Assembly (NCBI GenBank): GCA_039588915.1
Contig: JBDGYV010000004.1
Span: 2,632 to 66,631, forward strand
Length of the DNA stretch: 64,000 bases
Reading direction: 5' to 3'
Source: Gemmatimonadota bacterium
Lineage (GTDB): Bacteria > Gemmatimonadota > Gemmatimonadetes > JACCXV01 > JAHWKZ01
Shown: positions 51,300 through 60,009 of the stretch, piece after piece
Layout: every line of letters starts with the position of its first letter
Numbering within the stretch: position 1 is the first letter of the stretch
Program-made: the position numbers and the translations under genes
The notes under the pieces: model-generated
Told to the model about the DNA's origin: nothing
The model's database searches: none
The model's input: the letters and a program-made list of their open reading frames with translations, nothing else

Positions 51300-52316
51300 A
51301 TGAACATTTTGGTTACCGGTGGGGCGGGCTTTGTCGGCTCGCACTTGTGTGAGGCGTTGGTCGAGCGTGGTGACCGAGTCGTGGCGCTGGACAATCTTGA
51401 TCCGTCCTACCCGAGAGAGCGGAAGCTGCAGAACGTGATTCAGCTTCGCGACCACGTTCGCTTCGATCTCGTTGAGAGAGATCTCAACGTTCCTGAGTCG
51501 TTGGTCGAGGTCCTTGCTGGCGGGTCGTTCGACGCCGTCGTCCATTTGGCAGCCAAGGCGGGAATTCGGGCATCGATGCGTAATCCGAGCGCCTACATCG
51601 AGACAAATCTCGGGGGAACGGCGAACCTCCTCGAAGCGATGACCAGAACTGGTTGTCGCCGGCTTGTTTTCGGTTCGTCTTCGTCGGTTTACGGCAACAA
51701 TCCGGGTCGGCCTTCGCGTGAGGACGACCGAGTGAAGCCAGTCTCGGTGTACGCAATGACGAAGAAGAGTGGGGAGGAGCTGTGTCGCGTCTACAATACG
51801 ACGCAAGACTTCAGCGTGCTTTGTCTCCGCTTCTTCACTGTCTACGGTCCACGTCAACGACCGGAGATGGCGATCCACAAGTTCACCCGCCTACTACTCA
51901 ACAACGAGCCGATACCGCTGTTCGGCGACGGTTCGATGGAGCGCGACTACACGTACGTCGACGACATCACCAGTGGCGTCGTGTCCGCGATCGACTTTGT
52001 TACCGCGCATGGAGGATTCGAGGTCGTGAATCTTGGATCAGGGATGCCGCCGGTGACGTTGAACGAGCTCGTCGCAAGGCTGGGTTGGCTGTCCAAGATC
52101 GAGCCGAGGGTCGAGTACCACTCGGCCCCTGGGGGTGACGTCGATAGCACTTGTGCTGATATCAACAAAGCACTCGGACTGCTCAGCTACCAACCGCAGG
52201 TCGACTTTTCAGAAGGGCTTGGGCGATTCCTCGAGTGGTATCGAGTTCTCGCCGCTGCCGGCACGGCCTCTTACGGCCATCGCGCAGAGCCCGACCCAGC
52301 GACAAAGGCCTCATGA
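51300..52316 (+). CDS. NAD-dependent nucleotide-sugar epimerase/dehydratase (SDR extended family)
   Basis: GGAGFVGSHL Rossmann motif and the YAMTK catalytic YxxxK. Confidence 0.85.
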   Translation: MNILVTGGAGFVGSHLCEALVERGDRVVALDNLDPSYPRERKLQNVIQLRDHVRFDLVERDLNVPESLVEVLAGGSFDAVVHLAAKAGIRASMRNPSAYIETNLGGTANLLEAMTRTGCRRLVFGSSSSVYGNNPGRPSREDDRVKPVSVYAMTKKSGEELCRVYNTTQDFSVLCLRFFTVYGPRQRPEMAIHKFTRLLLNNEPIPLFGDGSMERDYTYVDDITSGVVSAIDFVTAHGGFEVVNLGSGMPPVTLNELVARLGWLSKIEPRVEYHSAPGGDVDSTCADINKALGLLSYQPQVDFSEGLGRFLEWYRVLAAAGTASYGHRAEPDPATKAS

Positions 52317-52357
52317 CTTGCCATCTGCCCCGGCACTGTAACTAGCCTCAGACTAGA

Positions 52358-53164
52358 TTGCGGTCCGTACTGGCGAGTCGAATCGCAAGGGCCTTCCCGG
52401 TGGTGGAGCAAGTGAAGTCTACAATCTGTGTTCTTGTTCTCGTGCTGGCGCTATCGGTGCTGGCATCTTGCAGGAGCGTCCGGCTAGCGGATCTCGAGAC
52501 AACTCGCGCGGTCCCGCCCGGGGCTTGTGTTGTAGTGGGGTTTTTGGGCGGGATGGATGCTTGGAACGATGCCAGCAAGGGTGCGCGGGGACTGGCGCTC
52601 GCGTTGCGAGACCGTGATGAAGGCGTGTACGCCGAGACGTTCGAGAACCGACGCATCCCTCTGGCGCTGGCCTTTGTCGATCGGGCCCTGGACGCGAACC
52701 ACGATGGTGAGATCGACGCGGACGAGGTGGGGCGCGTGCGTCTCGTTGTCTACGGCCAGAGTCTCGGCGGTTGGGCAGCCGTTGAGTTTGCCCGGATGCT
52801 CGCCGCTCGACTGATTCCGATCGAGTTCCTGCTTCAGATCGACAGTGTGGGATTCTATGATGATGAAGTGCCGGCCAACGTTCGTCGGGCGGCCAATTTC
52901 TATCAGGACGACGGATGGGTAATCGCCGGTGAGAACCCTATCCGAGCGTTGGATCCGAGTCAGACCCAGGTCATCGGGAACTGGAAGTTCGACTATGACC
53001 GGCCACCAGGGTCGGCGATCGACGTCGGGGATTTGCCGTGGTGGAAAAAGGCGTTTCGTGTGGCGCATGCTCGGATGGACCGCGACCCACGGGTGTGGGC
53101 GACCGCAAGCGGCCTCATTCGGCACGCTTGCGAGCTTGGTGCAGGCGGCCGAACGAACAGCTAA
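52358..53164 (+). CDS. Hypothetical secreted/lipoprotein with alpha/beta-hydrolase-like nucleophile elbow
   Basis: Signal/lipobox VLASC and GQSLGG (GxSxG). Confidence 0.4.
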   Translation: MRSVLASRIARAFPVVEQVKSTICVLVLVLALSVLASCRSVRLADLETTRAVPPGACVVVGFLGGMDAWNDASKGARGLALALRDRDEGVYAETFENRRIPLALAFVDRALDANHDGEIDADEVGRVRLVVYGQSLGGWAAVEFARMLAARLIPIEFLLQIDSVGFYDDEVPANVRRAANFYQDDGWVIAGENPIRALDPSQTQVIGNWKFDYDRPPGSAIDVGDLPWWKKAFRVAHARMDRDPRVWATASGLIRHACELGAGGRTNS

Positions 53165-53176
53165 GCTGGTTTCAAC

Positions 53177-53686
53177 GTGGATGCAGAACGTAGTCGAACG
53201 CTGAGCCAGGGTCTGATCGCCGGAGTGATCGGGTACGCGACGGTAGCGATCTGTTTCAGCGTGCTGAACCTCATCGCCGGACGACACCTACTTCACACCG
53301 CAGCGGTTCTGGGACACCGGCTGCTCGGGACTCTGGATAACGGAGACGCCGTGACCATCGAGGCCGCTCCAATCTTTGTCTACAATGGTCTGCACCTGGT
53401 TCTCTTTCTGTTGGTCGGGCTAGTCGCGTCATGGGTTGTGTTCAAGCTCGAGAAGTATCCCCAGTTGTGGTATCTGGTCCTCTTTTTGGTTCTGTTCGTC
53501 TTCTTTCACACAATCGGGGTGGTGCTCGCTTTCGTCGAACCGGTGACCGGCTCTGTCCCGATGTGGACCACTCTGTTGGTGAGTCTTGCGGCGGTGCTAA
53601 TGATGGGAGGCTACCTATGGCTGGTTCACCCTCGACTTCGACAGGAAGTTGAACGCTTGGGCGACTTTGAGGACCCCTTCCCCTAG
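53177..53686 (+). CDS. Hypothetical integral membrane protein
   Basis: Four to five hydrophobic helices; no recognisable motif. Confidence 0.4.
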   Translation: MDAERSRTLSQGLIAGVIGYATVAICFSVLNLIAGRHLLHTAAVLGHRLLGTLDNGDAVTIEAAPIFVYNGLHLVLFLLVGLVASWVVFKLEKYPQLWYLVLFLVLFVFFHTIGVVLAFVEPVTGSVPMWTTLLVSLAAVLMMGGYLWLVHPRLRQEVERLGDFEDPFP

Positions 53687-53687
53687 T

Positions 53688-54017
53688 TCAGTCTGGCAGA
53701 TCATTCAAGACTCGTTGGATTCTGCGTTTGTAGTCTCGAAATGCCTTTCTGCCCTCAGGCGTGAGGCGAATCATGCTATGCGGCTTCTTGCCTCGGAACT
53801 CTTTTTCGATTCGAACGTAGCCGGCTGTTTCCAGCTTTCGCAGATGAGTCGACAGATTGCCCCAGGTCAAACCGGTGAGGTGTACTAAGAACACGTAGTC
53901 TGCCCGGTTTACGACGTACAGGTAGGTCAACACCATCAGACGTGCGGGGGCGTGGACAACCTGATCGATATCGGCAAGCGGGTGGAGCTCCACCGAATCG
54001 GTTTTGTGCTCAGGCAT
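53688..54017 (-). CDS. Winged-helix transcriptional regulator (ArsR/MarR-like)
   Basis: wHTH core HAPARLMVLTYL...LVHLTGLTWGNLSTHLRKLETAGYV. No metal-binding Cys pair. Confidence 0.55.
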   Translation of the reverse strand: MPEHKTDSVELHPLADIDQVVHAPARLMVLTYLYVVNRADYVFLVHLTGLTWGNLSTHLRKLETAGYVRIEKEFRGKKPHSMIRLTPEGRKAFRDYKRRIQRVLNDLPD

Positions 54018-54645
54018 TCTGGCCCTCGATCGGGGAGGGCATGGGGTTGCTGCGCAGGATTGAAGAGAACTTGGTCAACCCAACCGCAATCATCACGGCC
54101 GCGGTGGTGCCGAGCGTCAGCGGCAGCCCGTGATGAGGCACGCTGCTGTGAGTGTATAGCCACTCTCCGACAAAGGGTGACGCGGCGAACAGGGCTCCAT
54201 ACAAGTAGAGACGTGCGAAGCTCAAGAAGTAGGCCGCGATACCGAAAGCCATCAGCACGACAAGTGCGAACGAGGAGGCATGGACCCACCCAGGCCAACT
54301 GACGTTGATCGCTGAGAGTATGCCGAGGATCATTGCCAACGTCATGGCCGCAAACATGATCACGTTGAACTTTCGCAGTCTTGCCAGTCTGGGCGGTCTG
54401 AACTCAACAACCCCAACGCGGGGTGTGACGATTGTTGTCTTCAACCAACGAAGCGCGAAATACGCGATCCCGAAGACCGGCACGAGAAGAAATGAGCTCC
54501 AGAAATCGCCCAACCTCGGGCTGAGAAAGAGAGCGATCACGAAAACCAGGGTGCAAGATCCGAGCAGCAGATCCCACAGGCCGTGGTCGAGTGTCGCGCG
54601 GAACGCCCTTTGCTCGGCGTTCTCGAGACTGATGCTATCCGTCAT
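54010..54645 (-). CDS. Hypothetical integral membrane protein (upstream of and overlapping the wHTH regulator)
   Basis: Five to six TM helices. The 8-nt overlap suggests co-transcription with the regulator. Confidence 0.45.
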   Translation of the reverse strand: MTDSISLENAEQRAFRATLDHGLWDLLLGSCTLVFVIALFLSPRLGDFWSSFLLVPVFGIAYFALRWLKTTIVTPRVGVVEFRPPRLARLRKFNVIMFAAMTLAMILGILSAINVSWPGWVHASSFALVVLMAFGIAAYFLSFARLYLYGALFAASPFVGEWLYTHSSVPHHGLPLTLGTTAAVMIAVGLTKFSSILRSNPMPSPIEGQNA

Positions 54646-54817
54646 GATGGCGCCTCCTGCACTGTGTCCAATAGAACTCTCCTAAACATTATACTCGGTA
54701 TAACAGAGTTGTCAACCCTCCGACACCTTCTCGTGCACCCTTTTGACTTCACTAGCTTCCGAGTCGCCACCCCAAATATCTTAGGTACAGCGGACTAGGG
54801 CCAACGCCTCAAGTGGC

Positions 54818-55219
54818 GTGTTAAGTCCAGCTACGGCAACGCCAGGGGGCGTTAGACTGGAAGACATGATGACGAGCATCCCCGTAATAGTTGGTGTTTT
54901 GGTGGCCGCGGTCGCGGTCGTTTATGCGTTCGTTCAGAATCATCGACAAGTGCGGGAAGGACAAGCGATCAAGAAGTGCGTCTTGGCCAATGCGCCCGAG
55001 GCTTGGGAGGGCCTAGGGCCGTTACATCGTCGCTGGTTGTCGCCGGAAGTCGGTCTTACGGTTCTGCGGCAGAAAAAGGCGATCGACGACTCTGCGTTCG
55101 AGCAGCAGTTCGAGCAGATGCGCGAGTTTGGCCGCAAGAAGCTCCAGGCGCTGATCGCAGGGACGATCGCCATTCTGATCGTGCTCGTTGGGACGAAGTT
55201 GCTCGGCTGGAACTGGTAA
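54818..55219 (+). CDS. Hypothetical small membrane protein
   Basis: N- and C-terminal TM segments. Codon usage is consistent with a real gene. Confidence 0.35.
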   Translation: MLSPATATPGGVRLEDMMTSIPVIVGVLVAAVAVVYAFVQNHRQVREGQAIKKCVLANAPEAWEGLGPLHRRWLSPEVGLTVLRQKKAIDDSAFEQQFEQMREFGRKKLQALIAGTIAILIVLVGTKLLGWNW

Positions 55220-55225
55220 CGTCGG

Positions 55226-56497
55226 CTACGTTTGTCGGGTCGCCCCACCGGCGATATCGGGCTCGAAGATCCGGTTCATCGCCAGCGTAAACAGAACCTG
55301 CAGCTTGTTTTGCAACCCCACCAGTTTGGCCACGTAAGCGGCTCGGTAGATGAACCACGCTGGTTTGCCGGTGATCTTGAACCCCAACAGGTCGATCAAC
55401 GCGACTCCTGCACCGAGCGAGATAATCTTGCCGGCGTGGTGAGCCTGGTAGGGCTCGAGTGGTCGTCCCAGGATGTGATTCTCGATGTTGCCGGCGGCCC
55501 GGACGCCCTGGCTGATTGCGATCGGGGCGACCGGTGGGTACGGCCGGTCGCTTCGTTCGTCGACGAGCGTCGCCACATCGCCGATTGCGAAGACGTTGTC
55601 GAACCCCTCGACGCGGAGCAGTGGATCGATCACGATCGCGCCACGCTCAGTCTGTAGCCCGATCTCGGTGACCCAGCTGGCCGGCGCTGTGCCGGCCGTC
55701 CAGACTAGCGTCTCCGCGGCGATCAACACTTCACGATCGGAGTTCTTGTCTCTTGTCGTGATTGAACCAGGCGTGGCGCCCGTAATAAGGGTTTCCATCC
55801 TGACATCGATTCCGCGCTCGCGGAGCTTCGCCAACCCTTCGGCGGCGAGCTCGTCGTCCCAGCCCGGCAAGATTCGATTCCCGCCGTTGACGAGTAGGAC
55901 CCGAACCGGCGGCACGCCAGGGTAGTAGGGTTTGAGCACCTCATTGGCCAGCGTCTGGATCTCGCTGGCGACCTCGACGCCGGCCGGACCTGCCCCGGCG
56001 ACGACAAACGTCAGCCACTGCGCCCTCTCGCTCGTGTCTTTGATCTTTGTGGCCTGCTCCAGCGTCTCGATAACACGGTTCCGTATCGCGCGAGCGTCGT
56101 CGACGGTCGTTAGCGGAAGAGAGTGCCGCCTGAGATCGTCATTCCCGAAGTAGCGCGGCGCAGCACCGACGGCGATCACGAGGTAGTCATAACCGACGTC
56201 GACATCGCCAGCGTGGACGACTTGGCGCTGCAAGTCGATGTCGCGTACCTCGGCTTGGATAAAGTCGAATCCGAAGCGCTGGCCGAGCAATCGAAGCGGA
56301 TAGGTCACGTGACGATGATCGAGGGAGCCGGCGGCCACTTCGGCCAACAGCGGTGAGAAAGTGAAGTAGTTCTTCCGATCCAGGAGAGTGATCTTGGCGC
56401 CGTCGATAGCCAACTCGGAGCGACCCAAGTAGGTGGCGGCGTACACGCCGCCAAAGCCACCGCCCAGGATCACGATTCGCGGTGTTCTTCGAGTCAT
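55226..56497 (-). CDS. ndh: Type II NADH:quinone oxidoreductase (NDH-2), FAD-dependent pyridine nucleotide-disulfide oxidoreductase
   Basis: Two dinucleotide-binding motifs (IVILGGGFGG and VVAGAGPAGVE). The start was taken at ATG 56497, which overlaps the upstream gene's stop as ATGA. Confidence 0.85.
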   Translation of the reverse strand: MTRRTPRIVILGGGFGGVYAATYLGRSELAIDGAKITLLDRKNYFTFSPLLAEVAAGSLDHRHVTYPLRLLGQRFGFDFIQAEVRDIDLQRQVVHAGDVDVGYDYLVIAVGAAPRYFGNDDLRRHSLPLTTVDDARAIRNRVIETLEQATKIKDTSERAQWLTFVVAGAGPAGVEVASEIQTLANEVLKPYYPGVPPVRVLLVNGGNRILPGWDDELAAEGLAKLRERGIDVRMETLITGATPGSITTRDKNSDREVLIAAETLVWTAGTAPASWVTEIGLQTERGAIVIDPLLRVEGFDNVFAIGDVATLVDERSDRPYPPVAPIAISQGVRAAGNIENHILGRPLEPYQAHHAGKIISLGAGVALIDLLGFKITGKPAWFIYRAAYVAKLVGLQNKLQVLFTLAMNRIFEPDIAGGATRQT

Positions 56498-56967
56498 TGC
56501 CCGAACGGCATCGAACGGCTCGGCAGGAGATCCGGGTAGTAGACGATCATCGTGCCGATCAAGGTGATGATGCCGACAATTAAGATGCCGACGAGCTGGG
56601 TCGACAGGCACCAGACCATCGCCTGGCGGTCCTCCTGGAGGTACGATCGCTTACGGCCGCTCCAGTAAAGGAATAAGCCGTAGACGAGCAAGAGCGAGGT
56701 CGCGAGCACAGCTTTAAAGAACAGCCAACCGCCGACTGGACCGCTGAAACGAGCGATCGACCCGAAGAACGCGTCGCGTAGGCCGGCGATCATGGAGAGC
56801 ACAATGGTGACTACGCCGGCTTTGGTGTTTGCTCGGGCGAAACGATAGATCCGGTCCTCGAATACGCTGGTCGCCAAGCCGCGAAAGAGCCACGCGTACA
56901 TGGCGATAAACGCCATGACGAGGAACGCGATGTGGAGGTGCACAAACAGCGGGTGAAGGATTCTCAT
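56494..56967 (-). CDS. Hypothetical polytopic membrane protein translationally coupled to ndh
   Basis: Four TM helices. Its stop overlaps the ndh start. Confidence 0.5.
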   Translation of the reverse strand: MRILHPLFVHLHIAFLVMAFIAMYAWLFRGLATSVFEDRIYRFARANTKAGVVTIVLSMIAGLRDAFFGSIARFSGPVGGWLFFKAVLATSLLLVYGLFLYWSGRKRSYLQEDRQAMVWCLSTQLVGILIVGIITLIGTMIVYYPDLLPSRSMPFGQ

Positions 56968-56985
56968 TGCTCTCGGAGGTTGAAG

Positions 56986-57426
56986 ATGAGGCTCGACAAG
57001 AGTTCCAACGGCAAGCCGGCGCAGGTCATTCCTGCGCTGCTTCTCACGATAATCGCCGGGGCGTGCGGCTCGGAGCCGGCGCGTGAGAGCGCACCGGCAA
57101 GTGAGCCGGTCATGTCAGGCGAGCACAAGCTGGTAATCCGGATGACCGACAACATGCGCTTCGCCCCTGATACGCCTACGATCAGCGTCGGCGATACGGT
57201 GGTCTGGGTCAACAACGGAAGGATGGAACATACGACCACCGACGTACCGGGCAAGGCGGGGGTCAACGAGCACAACATACTGCCGTCCAACGCCGACCCG
57301 TGGGATTCGGGTGAGCTGGCTCCGGGTGCGACTTTTAGGCAGGTCTTTAAGACGCCGGGTGAATACACCTACCTGTGCACGCTTCACGAGGCCGCAGGAA
57401 TGGTTGCCCGCCTGAACGTGCGCTAG
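56986..57426 (+). CDS. Type-1 copper cupredoxin (plastocyanin/pseudoazurin-like) lipoprotein
   Basis: RBS GGAGG. Lipobox IAGAC. Copper ligands H (MEHTT) and C-x2-H-x4-M (CTLHEAAGM). Confidence 0.8.
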   Translation: MRLDKSSNGKPAQVIPALLLTIIAGACGSEPARESAPASEPVMSGEHKLVIRMTDNMRFAPDTPTISVGDTVVWVNNGRMEHTTTDVPGKAGVNEHNILPSNADPWDSGELAPGATFRQVFKTPGEYTYLCTLHEAAGMVARLNVR

Positions 57427-57483
57427 CGTTGATCGCAACGGGTGGAAGTTTGTTGAACTCCTTTACTCAGCCAGCGAGGGAAT

Positions 57484-57914
57484 GTGAGAGCGAGTCTGTG
57501 TCTTGCGGTGTGCTTGTTCTTCGGAATAGCGATGATCCCCACCGTCCAAGCCCGGGACGAGGCAGCAGGGACGATCGCGGTCAGCTACTGGAAGTGCCCG
57601 TTTGGTGATCTGGGTGAGGCGATTCAATTGCTCAACGACGATGTGCGCTCGGTCGCCCAGAGTGTGATCGACGACGGCATGTGGATGGACTGGGGGATCC
57701 TTAGCCACGCTTGGGGGACGACTGGAACCTCTTGATCTACACCGCGGCGGCCGATCGGAATGCGTTTTTCACCGGGTGGGACGAGTACATCCGTCGTCTC
57801 GGCGAAAACGACCCCGACGGTGAATTGACCGAACGGTTTTTTGCCCTTTGCCCCGAGCACAAGGACAACATCTATAGCGTCGTCTCACCTGGCGGTGGTG
57901 ACGACGGTATGTAG
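57484..57914 (+). pseudogene. Hypothetical secreted protein split into two frames at a G5 run (57713-57717)
   Basis: ORFs 57484-57735 and 57711-57914 abut in different frames. A 1-nt indel would fuse them into one ~150-aa protein. Confidence 0.3.
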
Positions 57915-58065
57915 GCGATTTCCCGACAAGCGTTTTTCCAATCAACTCGCTCGGTTGACGCAATCGAGATATACTGGCAGGAACGACGCTTGTGATTTTG
58001 GGTACAAGGACGATAGGAACGCACTGACGGGTTTTATTCAACCGACCAAGCGGGGGTCATCACAG

Positions 58066-58500
58066 ATGGGAATCCGACGACAGTTGCTGTGGGCGATCGT
58101 GCTGCTGCTCGCATTCGGGGCGGCCACGGCATACGGGCAGGAAGCAACGAAGCCTAGCGCTGAGGCGGCAAAGCCTGCAGCAGTAAGCCACGACCTGGAA
58201 GGGCGCTCCGAGTGTCTAATGTGCCATTCCGGGGCCATGGAGGGAGTACCGGCTGCGCCCGAAGACCACGCTGAGCGTGGCAACGACACATGCCTCTGGT
58301 GTCACGGACCTAGCGCTGCGATGCAGACCATAGCGGCACCGCAAATAAAGCACGAGCTAGAAGGCCGTGGGGATTGCGCCATGTGCCACACCAGCGGGAT
58401 GGAGTCGATCCTTCAGGCACCGGCGGATCACAAGGATAGGCCGAGCGGTAGCTGCACGATGTGTCATCTGCCGATGGCAAGCGACGCCTCTGGCGAGTAA
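58066..58500 (+). CDS. Tetraheme c-type cytochrome (tandem duplication of a doubled-CXXCH module)
   Basis: RBS GGGGG. Signal peptide. Four CxxCH motifs (CLMCH, CLWCH, CAMCH, CTMCH) lie in two near-identical halves, H[DE]LEGRxxCxMCH...DHxxRxxxCxxCH. Confidence 0.75.
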   Translation: MGIRRQLLWAIVLLLAFGAATAYGQEATKPSAEAAKPAAVSHDLEGRSECLMCHSGAMEGVPAAPEDHAERGNDTCLWCHGPSAAMQTIAAPQIKHELEGRGDCAMCHTSGMESILQAPADHKDRPSGSCTMCHLPMASDASGE

Positions 58501-59167
58501 GCCCCGCATTACTCGCGACCCAGCCCCGCTGGACAAGCGCTACCTGGATGACGAGATCGTCGACCAGTACGACACGAAGCGCTACCAAGGCGGGTTCAAA
58601 GCCGTCAAGAGCCGGGTCTGGATTCGTGTCGTCGAGAAGGCGCTCGAACACATCACCCCCGCGCGGTCGATCATCGACATACCCTGCGGTACTGGCTACC
58701 TGACCGACGTCGTGAGCAGCGTCTTCCCGCTGACAATCGCCGCGGATGTTTCGCCGACGATGGTCCACAAAGCGTTATCCAAGATGGACGCCGTGGGGTT
58801 GGTCGCGGACCTGCAACGACTACCACTCCAGGACAGCGCCGTCGACTGTGTGCTCAACGTGCGCTTCATGGTTCACTTCGGTCCCGAAGAGCGAACCCAG
58901 TTCTTGAGCGAAATGGCCCGCGTCAGCCGACGGTACGTGCTGGTCAACTACAATCATCGATACAACGTCAAGTATGCTCTGCGTCGAATCCGGTCAGCGT
59001 TCGGGCGGGTGGAGAGCAAGAAGGTGGCGAGGAAAGCATCGCGCCGCGAGTTGAACCGGGAAGCCAAGGCCGCCAGCCTACGCGTCGTCAAGATCTTTCG
59101 GGGCAACCCACTGCTACCCTTCATGAGCGAGCGGTGGTTGGTGCTGTTGGAAAAAGAGCGCAGCTGA
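58367..59167 (+). CDS. Class I SAM-dependent methyltransferase (start uncertain)
   Basis: SAM motif IDIPCGTGYL and a DxxxxxLQ motif II. The ATG at 58367 overlaps the cytochrome gene by 134 nt. In-frame non-canonical start candidates lie at 58508-58544. Confidence 0.65.
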   Translation: MGIAPCATPAGWSRSFRHRRITRIGRAVAARCVICRWQATPLASKPRITRDPAPLDKRYLDDEIVDQYDTKRYQGGFKAVKSRVWIRVVEKALEHITPARSIIDIPCGTGYLTDVVSSVFPLTIAADVSPTMVHKALSKMDAVGLVADLQRLPLQDSAVDCVLNVRFMVHFGPEERTQFLSEMARVSRRYVLVNYNHRYNVKYALRRIRSAFGRVESKKVARKASRRELNREAKAASLRVVKIFRGNPLLPFMSERWLVLLEKERS

Positions 59168-59190
59168 CCGCTCTCAGGCTGAGGCGTGAC

Positions 59191-60009
59191 TCAGTCCTTG
59201 CGTGCTCGGCGACGCTGCCGGGTGATTAGCGCTCGTTGCATCGACCGCCACAAGCTACGGCGTTCCTCGCCGGGCTGATCACTGATTTCTAGTGCGCCTT
59301 CGAGCAGTCGTGCCTGGTCAGAGCGAGTGAGGCCAGGAATGCTGATCCACACTTGGGCCAGGTTCACTCCGCGCTGACGCATCGTCGGCCGCCGTCCAGT
59401 AACAGACCGGTAGAGGTCTAGCAGGACGATGCCGTGGATCCCGTCCTCGGGCAGTTGACCCTGGGCTGCTAGGATGTGTGGCGCTTTGAGATCATCGTGA
59501 AAGAGACCCCGTGCATGAAGTGTACCGATCAGCCGTCCGAGTAACCGGACCGCACGTCGGCGTTCCGAACCACTGGCGTCGCGGACGATCAAGTCAGCGG
59601 ACTTCACGTCGTGGACCTCTCGCGTAGCGAGAAAACTCTCCCGCCTCAGAAAGCCGATTTGCCGCACGCCGAACAAAACCGGTGGGGAAACACCGATTCC
59701 TAGATCCTCGACCGCGTGGATCGCGAGCCATTCGCCCCGGGCTCTGGTCCGCCCGAGAGCGTCCTTCAATCGCCGTCGAAGGTCGCCAAACTGGTAGCGT
59801 TTGAGATACACCCGCTCCGGTTGGCCATCGACTTCGAAGGGGACGCGGACGACGATCTGGTTGGGGTGGGTACGAACAACTTCAACTTCCTGGTGGAGCC
59901 GGTCCAGCTCGAGCCATGGGAGCGACTCCACGACCAGGTCCTTGTAGGCAGGCAGGCATTCGAATGTGGCGCCATTGCGTGTGAACCGCACCGTCGTGTC
60001 TGAGACCAC
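59191..60009 (-). CDS. Lipopolysaccharide/Kdo kinase family protein (KdkA/InaA/WaaP-like)
   Basis: Protein-kinase-like fold with catalytic HARGLFHDDLKAPHIL and a DLY Mg-binding motif. Size and motifs fit the Kdo kinase family. Confidence 0.65.
   Translation of the reverse strand: MVSDTTVRFTRNGATFECLPAYKDLVVESLPWLELDRLHQEVEVVRTHPNQIVVRVPFEVDGQPERVYLKRYQFGDLRRRLKDALGRTRARGEWLAIHAVEDLGIGVSPPVLFGVRQIGFLRRESFLATREVHDVKSADLIVRDASGSERRRAVRLLGRLIGTLHARGLFHDDLKAPHILAAQGQLPEDGIHGIVLLDLYRSVTGRRPTMRQRGVNLAQVWISIPGLTRSDQARLLEGALEISDQPGEERRSLWRSMQRALITRQRRRARKD

Follow-up and report, generated by a model that had tools for sequence, protein, structure and literature searches.

A compact cluster of redox genes was analyzed at positions 55226-58500 of a 64,000-nucleotide stretch of DNA from a Gemmatimonadota bacterium (NCBI GenBank assembly GCA_039588915.1, contig JBDGYV010000004.1, positions 2,632 to 66,631 of the forward strand), which as a whole is called the window here. 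The cluster encodes an NDH-2-type NADH dehydrogenase (ndh), a membrane protein of the DUF2231 family, a type-1 copper lipoprotein (cupredoxin) and a tetrahaem cytochrome c, with a frameshifted pair of small open reading frames (ORFs) between the last two (Table 1). The G+C content of the window is approximately 60%, its remaining genes are housekeeping ones, and no other cytochrome or respiratory gene was found among its ORFs of at least 90 aa. An earlier sequence-only reading of this DNA had described four of these genes and proposed that they form a dedicated periplasmic electron-transfer chain. The layout that it gave was reproduced: the stop codon of the 157-aa protein overlaps the ndh start as ATGA (TCAT on the plus strand), exactly 18 nt separate the start codons of the divergent DUF2231 and cupredoxin genes, and the assignments of a four-helix membrane protein and of a cupredoxin lipoprotein with intact copper ligands both held, on the Pfam and model evidence given below.

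Table 1. Genes and features of the redox cluster, in positions of the window.
Feature	Position	Strand	Basis or remark
ndh (NDH-2), 423 aa	55226-56497	-	start taken as ATG at 56497; Pfam Pyr_redox_2, PDB 4nwz
ATGA stop/start overlap (DUF2231 TGA, ndh ATG)	56494-56497	-	plus strand TCAT
DUF2231 four-helix membrane protein, 157 aa	56494-56967	-	Pfam PF09990, AlphaFold2 (AF2) model
18-nt spacer between the divergent DUF2231 and cupredoxin start codons	56968-56985	.	read directly
Type-1 (blue) copper lipoprotein, 146 aa	56986-57426	+	PF00127, lipobox, ligand set
Frameshifted small secreted protein	57484-57914	+	two overlapping ORFs, 57484-57735 and 57711-57914
Periplasmic tetrahaem cytochrome c, 144 aa, two two-haem repeats	58066-58500	+	CxxCH motifs, Cytochrome_C7

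The divergent spacer contains GGAGG 6 nt 5′ of the cupredoxin ATG and no sigma-70-like site; because it is only 18 nt long, the 5′ untranslated regions and promoters on both sides must sit within the opposite gene. A promoter and terminator scan within the cluster returned nothing exceeding the shuffled expectation, and no Rfam match was found over positions 52000-60000.

The ndh product was compared with enzymes of known structure and with its own clade. Pfam Pyr_redox_2 matched it at E = 1.2e-42, and its best PDB match was the Caldalkalibacillus thermarum NDH-2 (4nwz, E = 1.4e-60, residues 5-383), followed by matches to NDH-2 of S. aureus (5na1, E = 1.3e-45) and of B. subtilis and to yeast Ndi1 (approximately 1e-27), while sulfide:quinone reductases matched far more weakly (approximately 1e-12) and at the N-terminus alone. 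Judged from these matches, the protein is a member of the NDH-2 family. The dinucleotide motifs GGGFGG (residues 12-17) and GAGPAG (residues 168-173) are present, and the glycines G12, G14, G17, G168, G170 and G173 are conserved in the clade. The canonical quinone-site motif AQxAxQ is replaced throughout the clade by APIAISQG, in which the first Q is changed to P and the second is shifted by one position. APxAxQ is a documented variant carried by approximately 10% of NDH-2s, AQxAxR is likewise accepted beside AQxAxQ, and the final Q of the clade's APIAISQ stands one position later than in APxAxQ. A clade-specific loss of the quinone site through the Q317-to-P change was considered and rejected, as APxAxQ is already a documented variant. 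In the C-terminal anchor region, W381, Y384, R385 and Y388 are conserved; NDH2_C (PF22366) matched the window protein weakly (20.4 bits, under the cutoff of 27.7), and a precomputed PF22366 match is present in many clade members. No conserved Cys was found in the clade alignment, so a thiol-based mechanism is unlikely. Compared with the canonical enzymes (4NWZ and 5NA1), the window NDH-2 shares both dinucleotide-binding domains and the length, and its C-terminal region aligns with their membrane-anchor domain. However, the canonical enzymes are described as monotopic and made of one subunit, while the members of the window clade are always encoded directly after a four-helix DUF2231 gene.

To quantify this linkage, one genome per species was scanned with the DUF2231 alignment, and 54 loci were obtained, mostly from Gemmatimonadota, with six from Rokubacteria/Methylomirabilota, two from gammaproteobacteria and two on short Acidimicrobiia-binned contigs. 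In 52 of these loci, tblastn placed an NDH-2 homologue immediately after DUF2231; the two exceptions are a contig that ends 1.8 kb past the match without NDH-2 (L059) and an 18-residue fragment (L063). All 50 species-level genomes with a readable DUF2231 junction have NDH-2 directly downstream. In detail, the distance from the DUF2231 stop to the ndh start was -4 nt in 17 of the 50 measurable genomes, -1 nt in 13 and +2 to +17 nt in another 17, so that 47 junctions fall between -4 and +17 nt, and the junctions of the remaining three are artefactual or degraded. The reverse test started from three NDH-2 homologues of 52-56% identity on long contigs, picked regardless of their context. DUF2231 lay directly upstream in all three, with two 4-nt overlaps and one 30-nt gap, and a divergent cupredoxin was present in one of these loci. 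Thus, the proposal of the sequence-only reading that the 157-aa protein is a membrane anchor or partner of NDH-2 is strongly supported, by an overlapping or near-abutting gene pair in approximately 50 species-level genomes that was also recovered from the NDH-2 side.

Sequence conservation was then compared within the linked genes. DUF2231 was more conserved than NDH-2 in 41 of 41 genomes, the mean identities to the window proteins being 69.5% for DUF2231 (range 58-79%, 41 genomes), 53.6% for NDH-2 and 48.9% for the cupredoxin. Other than the cupredoxin, no gene family recurred in more than six of the DUF2231-ndh loci. As far as gene neighbourhoods tell, the conserved unit is therefore DUF2231-ndh, often with a cupredoxin, and not the four genes first proposed. 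A homology search with the DUF2231 protein returned 249 matches, of which the best 120 were 69-100% identical; the few named organisms among these 120 belong to Gemmatimonadota, Gemmatimonadales and Longimicrobiales.

Further, the module was found in two gammaproteobacteria, Litchfieldella qijiaojingensis KCTC 22228 (L035, 5561-9434) and an Aquisalimonas bin (L040, 716-3440). Both carry a tight cupredoxin-DUF2231-ndh operon whose DUF2231 is 67-70% identical to that of the window, and these copies probably reflect horizontal transfer. In a close relative (L013, 2635-3723), DUF2231 is intact (86% identical), ndh is matched at its two ends only and just an 81-aa piece of the cupredoxin is left, which may reflect decay of the module or a misassembly.

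The DUF2231 protein matched PF09990 at 37.7 bits (cutoff 26.4) over residues 4-143, and its AF2 model (mean pLDDT 82) contains four helices, at residues 4-28, 34-68, 79-105 and 114-143. The invariant residues fall into two groups. One comprises HPLFVHLH (5-12) at the start of helix 1 together with D65, W81, K85, T135 and T139, which are predicted to point toward the same membrane end. The other, at the opposite end, comprises SVFEDR (34-39), R45, N47, LQE (110-112), W119, C120 and Q124; WCL (119-121) is likewise invariant, and Y109 and D113 are conserved in at least 90% of the sequences. Lys plus Arg amounted to 8.4 in loops 1 and 3 and to 4.1 in the termini and loop 2, which places the second group of residues on the cytoplasmic side, that of NDH-2, and the His cluster at the periplasmic surface. 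Accordingly, on a topology based only on the positive-inside rule and the AF2 model, loops 1 and 3 (SVFEDR...R..N and YLQED) are predicted to be cytoplasmic and the H5/H10/H12 cluster is predicted to lie at the periplasmic end of helix 1. On its periplasmic face, DUF2231 might hold a metal through three His or bind quinol.

A search of a set of 1.84 billion representative proteins with a profile of this DUF2231 subfamily gave just 32 matches, mostly fragments, which indicates a narrow and tightly constrained DUF2231 branch. None of the 32 was an informative fusion. Two kinds of fusion candidates were rejected: P0157 is a glycosyltransferase ORF that runs into a DUF2231 fragment, and in the apparent DUF2231-NDH-2 fusion ORFs of two metagenome bins (L060, 6001-7725; L062, 5992-7767) the latter half of DUF2231 is out of frame with the rest, so that these ORFs are frameshifts or assembly errors. 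A PDB profile search with the DUF2231 alignment yielded no match at E <= 10, and no functional study turned up in full-text literature searches for DUF2231, PF09990, IPR019251 and COG4244.

The window cupredoxin matched the plastocyanin/azurin family PF00127 at 46.9 bits (cutoff 21.2, E = 3.9e-12), and carries the lipobox IIAGAC with Cys27 and the type-1 ligands H82, C131, H134 and M139. Using a hidden Markov model built from the copper proteins next to the gene pair, a cupredoxin gene was located adjacent to DUF2231-ndh in 31 loci, of which 19 have it divergent and upstream, 10 co-directional and directly upstream, and 2 convergent and downstream; in both gammaproteobacteria, the co-directional cupredoxin gene overlaps DUF2231 by 1 nt. 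The type-1 ligands are kept in most of the adjacent proteins; the main group of Gemmatimonadota has them spaced as C-x2-H-x4-M, and Rokubacteria have C-x2-H-x2-M. The exceptions are the two gammaproteobacterial proteins, which have Asn or Asp at the aligned Met, and those of L033 and L043, which align poorly there. By a strict pattern, a lipobox was found in 19 of 33 cupredoxin-type ORFs, and in many of the adjacent cupredoxins it is followed by a linker of 25-30 residues. Since the adjacency persists through three arrangements and across phyla, it argues for a functional link, and on this neighbourhood evidence an association of the cupredoxin with the DUF2231-NDH-2 pair, as had been proposed for the window, is plausible.

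The cytochrome has CxxCH motifs at residues 50, 76, 104 and 130 and a Sec-type signal peptide visible in its sequence, and passed the Pfam cutoff for Cytochrome_C7 (PF14522, 31.5 bits vs. 24.8), in line with the cytochromes c7/c3 (PF14522 and PF02085). In 35 family members, neither the four CxxCH motifs nor four additional His (H42, H68, H96 and H122) vary, which excludes an assembly error and makes four bis-His haems likely. The organization in two di-haem halves was confirmed, as the repeat scored 135 against 27 ± 6 for shuffled halves. However, the halves had been called near-identical and the product of a recent internal duplication, and neither description held: they are 46% identical over 46 aligned residues (49% over the motif-delimited halves), and no significant DNA similarity was detected between them. 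Both halves are present in all 35 family members, so that the duplication is ancestral, and those of the window protein are the most diverged of the 34 members compared (49%). In many family members (e.g., P0015, P0033, P0032 and P0017), the identity between the two halves is 70-87%, and residues specific to a lineage recur in both. The alignments suggest an old tandem repeat under concerted evolution, through gene conversion or symmetric selection.

The cytochrome gene adjoins the module only in relatives with a DUF2231 identity to the window of 86% or more (L001-3 and L010-13), and was found in none of the 41 more distant DUF2231 loci. Homologues of 49-60% identity (L004, 6001-6387; L006, 6001-6411; L008, 4648-5037) instead have cytochrome b genes as neighbours, with several large multihaem cytochromes on the flanks and, in L004, a Rieske gene as well; neither ndh, DUF2231 nor a cupredoxin was found near them. 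From their gene content, these loci, one of which is in a Gemmatimonadales bin, look like an uncharacterised bc-type/multihaem complex. The tetrahaem cytochrome thus reads as a separate family of small periplasmic carriers of Gemmatimonadota-like metagenome bins, normally associated with a bc-type complex, that adjoins the module here through a lineage-specific rearrangement. Other c-type cytochromes adjoin the module in the gammaproteobacteria, namely a monohaem one upstream in Aquisalimonas (L040) and a DHOR di-haem protein downstream in Litchfieldella (L035), which weakly favours a periplasmic chain in general.

The gap of 639 nt between the cupredoxin and cytochrome genes holds the frameshifted ORF pair, which the first reading had overlooked. 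An intact 143-aa orthologue of the encoded secreted protein is present in L013, and no Pfam match was found for it. The window has five G at 57713-57717, while six are present in the 99.9%-identical contigs L064 and L065 and in the orthologues of L012 and L013; the deletion of one G may be an error of sequencing, a difference between strains or phase variation. The gene is wholly absent from the slightly more distant relatives L001 and L010, and is not part of the conserved module. At the other end of the cluster, the longest methyltransferase ORF (58367-59167, plus strand, 266 aa) shares 134 nt with the 3′ end of the cytochrome gene, and a close relative has a shorter methyltransferase call of 151 aa. 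In the near-identical JGI contigs (L064, 800-1600), the 266-aa methyltransferase is called and no gene is called over the cytochrome, which is why the cytochrome is missing from the protein collection. Outside the cluster, a perfect sigma-70 consensus (TTGACA, 16 nt, TATAAT; 12/12), unusual given the 60% G+C, lies at 54688-54715 on the minus strand, approximately 40 nt upstream of a gene pair for a 211-aa membrane protein and an HTH_34 regulator (54645 down to 53688).

The reading that we favour, and hold with moderate confidence, is a two-gene operon that is often extended to a three-gene module, in which DUF2231 would be a dedicated membrane subunit of NDH-2 and would be functionally tied to the cupredoxin. 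DUF2231 would be translated together with NDH-2 and inserted as its integral-membrane subunit, NADH would be oxidised on the flavin adenine dinucleotide of NDH-2, and quinone would take up the electrons where NDH-2 meets DUF2231 or close to it. In most lineages, the membrane-tethered periplasmic type-1 copper protein would be the downstream electron acceptor, reached either directly via DUF2231 or by way of the general quinone pool and further complexes. From gene order and conservation we infer a physical DUF2231:NDH-2 complex, with DUF2231 as a stoichiometric subunit docking via its cytoplasmic loops; the direction of electron flow and its arrival at the tethered cupredoxin we infer as well.

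A bolder version would have DUF2231 itself redox-active or quinol-handling and the three proteins together forming a minimal NADH:cupredoxin oxidoreductase that bypasses the bc1 complex. We regard this as conceivable, with considerable doubt. The cytoplasmic polar cluster of DUF2231 would dock the quinone site of NDH-2, the periplasmic cluster of H5, H10, H12, D65 and K85 would oxidise quinol or hold a metal, and electrons would then pass directly to the tethered cupredoxin. If protons are released outside, the oxidoreductase would constitute a simple redox loop. In this version, the cupredoxin would feed periplasmic enzymes, for example peroxidases, copper nitrite reductase or N2O reductase, or else terminal oxidases.

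Several observations weigh against the dedicated-subunit reading. Judged from its sequence, NDH-2 looks competent alone, as it retains both Rossmann motifs, a probable C-terminal anchor region with its amphipathic part and an APxAxQ-like motif; with an apparently normal membrane-anchor region and a known Q-to-P variant, the enzyme could work without a partner. DUF2231 shows no cofactor motif in its sequence and no cofactor could be assigned to it; moreover, its His are confined to helix 1, so that a monomer cannot ligate a haem by two His. Approximately 20 of the 50 loci have no adjacent cupredoxin, hence the copper protein is not obligatory, at least in cis, and nearly all genomes with the module are metagenome bins. 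Most of these points would equally suit an ordinary monotopic NDH-2 that feeds the bulk quinone pool, with DUF2231 as an assembly, insertion or regulatory factor or an unrelated operon member and a cupredoxin that is merely co-regulated. We nevertheless judge this explanation unlikely, because the linkage was lost in none of approximately 50 species over three phyla with translational coupling kept, because a protein that surpasses the enzyme in conservation in every genome compared fits a stoichiometric, constrained partner better than a dispensable accessory, and because the adjacency of the cupredoxin survives three different gene arrangements.

The four-gene periplasmic chain of the sequence-only reading fared less well, and we now consider it improbable: its NDH-2 partner and cupredoxin neighbourhood stood, while the part of the cytochrome, which is adjacent only in close relatives, proved weak. 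The window and relatives with DUF2231 86-98% identical do have the four genes side by side, and the c-type cytochromes beside the gammaproteobacterial modules point the same way. Against this, the less similar homologues of the cytochrome keep company with cytochrome b and multihaem clusters rather than with the other three genes, the cytochrome is missing from the distant DUF2231 loci (0 of 41), and a separate, frameshifted gene that is variably present among close relatives stands between it and the cupredoxin. Further, four bis-His haems usually have low midpoint potentials, and such expected potentials give no specific pairing with a blue copper protein.

Copper handling was weighed as well, in which the lipoprotein and the His-rich membrane protein would act like CopC/CopD and NDH-2 would serve as a cupric reductase, a role reported for E. 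coli NDH-2. E. coli NDH-2 has been described as a copper-dependent enzyme whose activity is linked to YobA, a periplasmic CopC homologue, and YebY; the AZY operon concerned is of the CopC/CopD type, and its CopD homologue YebZ is dispensable for E. coli NDH-2 (PMC8689200). This reported copper link, the three invariant His at the periplasmic end of DUF2231 helix 1 and a faint, sub-threshold CopD match of the relative P0157 (E = 0.008, 17 bits vs. a cutoff of 32.1) speak for such a role. Nevertheless, we give it very little chance: the copper protein belongs to the plastocyanin/azurin family with a complete, buried His-Cys-His-Met type-1 site, which is typical of electron carriers and not of chaperones, the DUF2231 and cupredoxin proteins of the window have no CopC or CopD match at E <= 0.01, and copper-resistance genes do not recur around the loci.

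Among known systems, the most alike in arrangement is the Ndh-Ncp complex, in which B. subtilis Ndh is paired with the DUF1641 protein Ncp/YjlC, which forms lipid-filled filaments; it is reported only from Bacillota, and the work on it (2026) showed that a hidden partner can alter the access of the enzyme to the membrane and the quinone pool (PMC13524794). In both cases, an NDH-2 clade is defined by strict synteny with a small partner gene. However, the partner in the window is not DUF1641, for which the Pfam scans of the neighbourhood gave no match, but an integral four-helix DUF2231 protein that occurs in Gemmatimonadota, Rokubacteria and a few gammaproteobacteria; moreover, the window module includes a copper protein, and the C-terminus of its NDH-2 is not obviously remodelled.

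A second comparison is offered by the flavin-based extracellular electron transfer locus of Listeria and Lactiplantibacillus, which encodes Ndh2, EetA/EetB and the flavinylated lipoprotein PplA. This locus resembles the window module in that an NDH-2 of specialised type is encoded together with one or more small membrane proteins and with a redox lipoprotein at the outer face. Its outer protein is flavinylated and not a cupredoxin, no homology was found between its partners and those of the window, and the likeness is one of mechanism only. Its Ndh2 also has transmembrane helices of its own (NDH-2 clade D).

NDH-2 is the textbook example of a respiratory dehydrogenase with a single subunit, and it is also a drug target. 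An NDH-2 clade that is always accompanied by a more conserved integral-membrane partner, and often by a blue copper protein, gives a first functional handle on DUF2231. What is new here, as read from gene order and conservation, is most likely a two-subunit, cupredoxin-linked NDH-2 module. Because it occurs as a tight three-gene operon in a cultured organism, Litchfieldella qijiaojingensis, the idea is directly testable. These results suggest an undescribed multi-part respiratory module and point to an unrecognised respiratory branch in Gemmatimonadota, which are common yet little-studied in soils and sediments.

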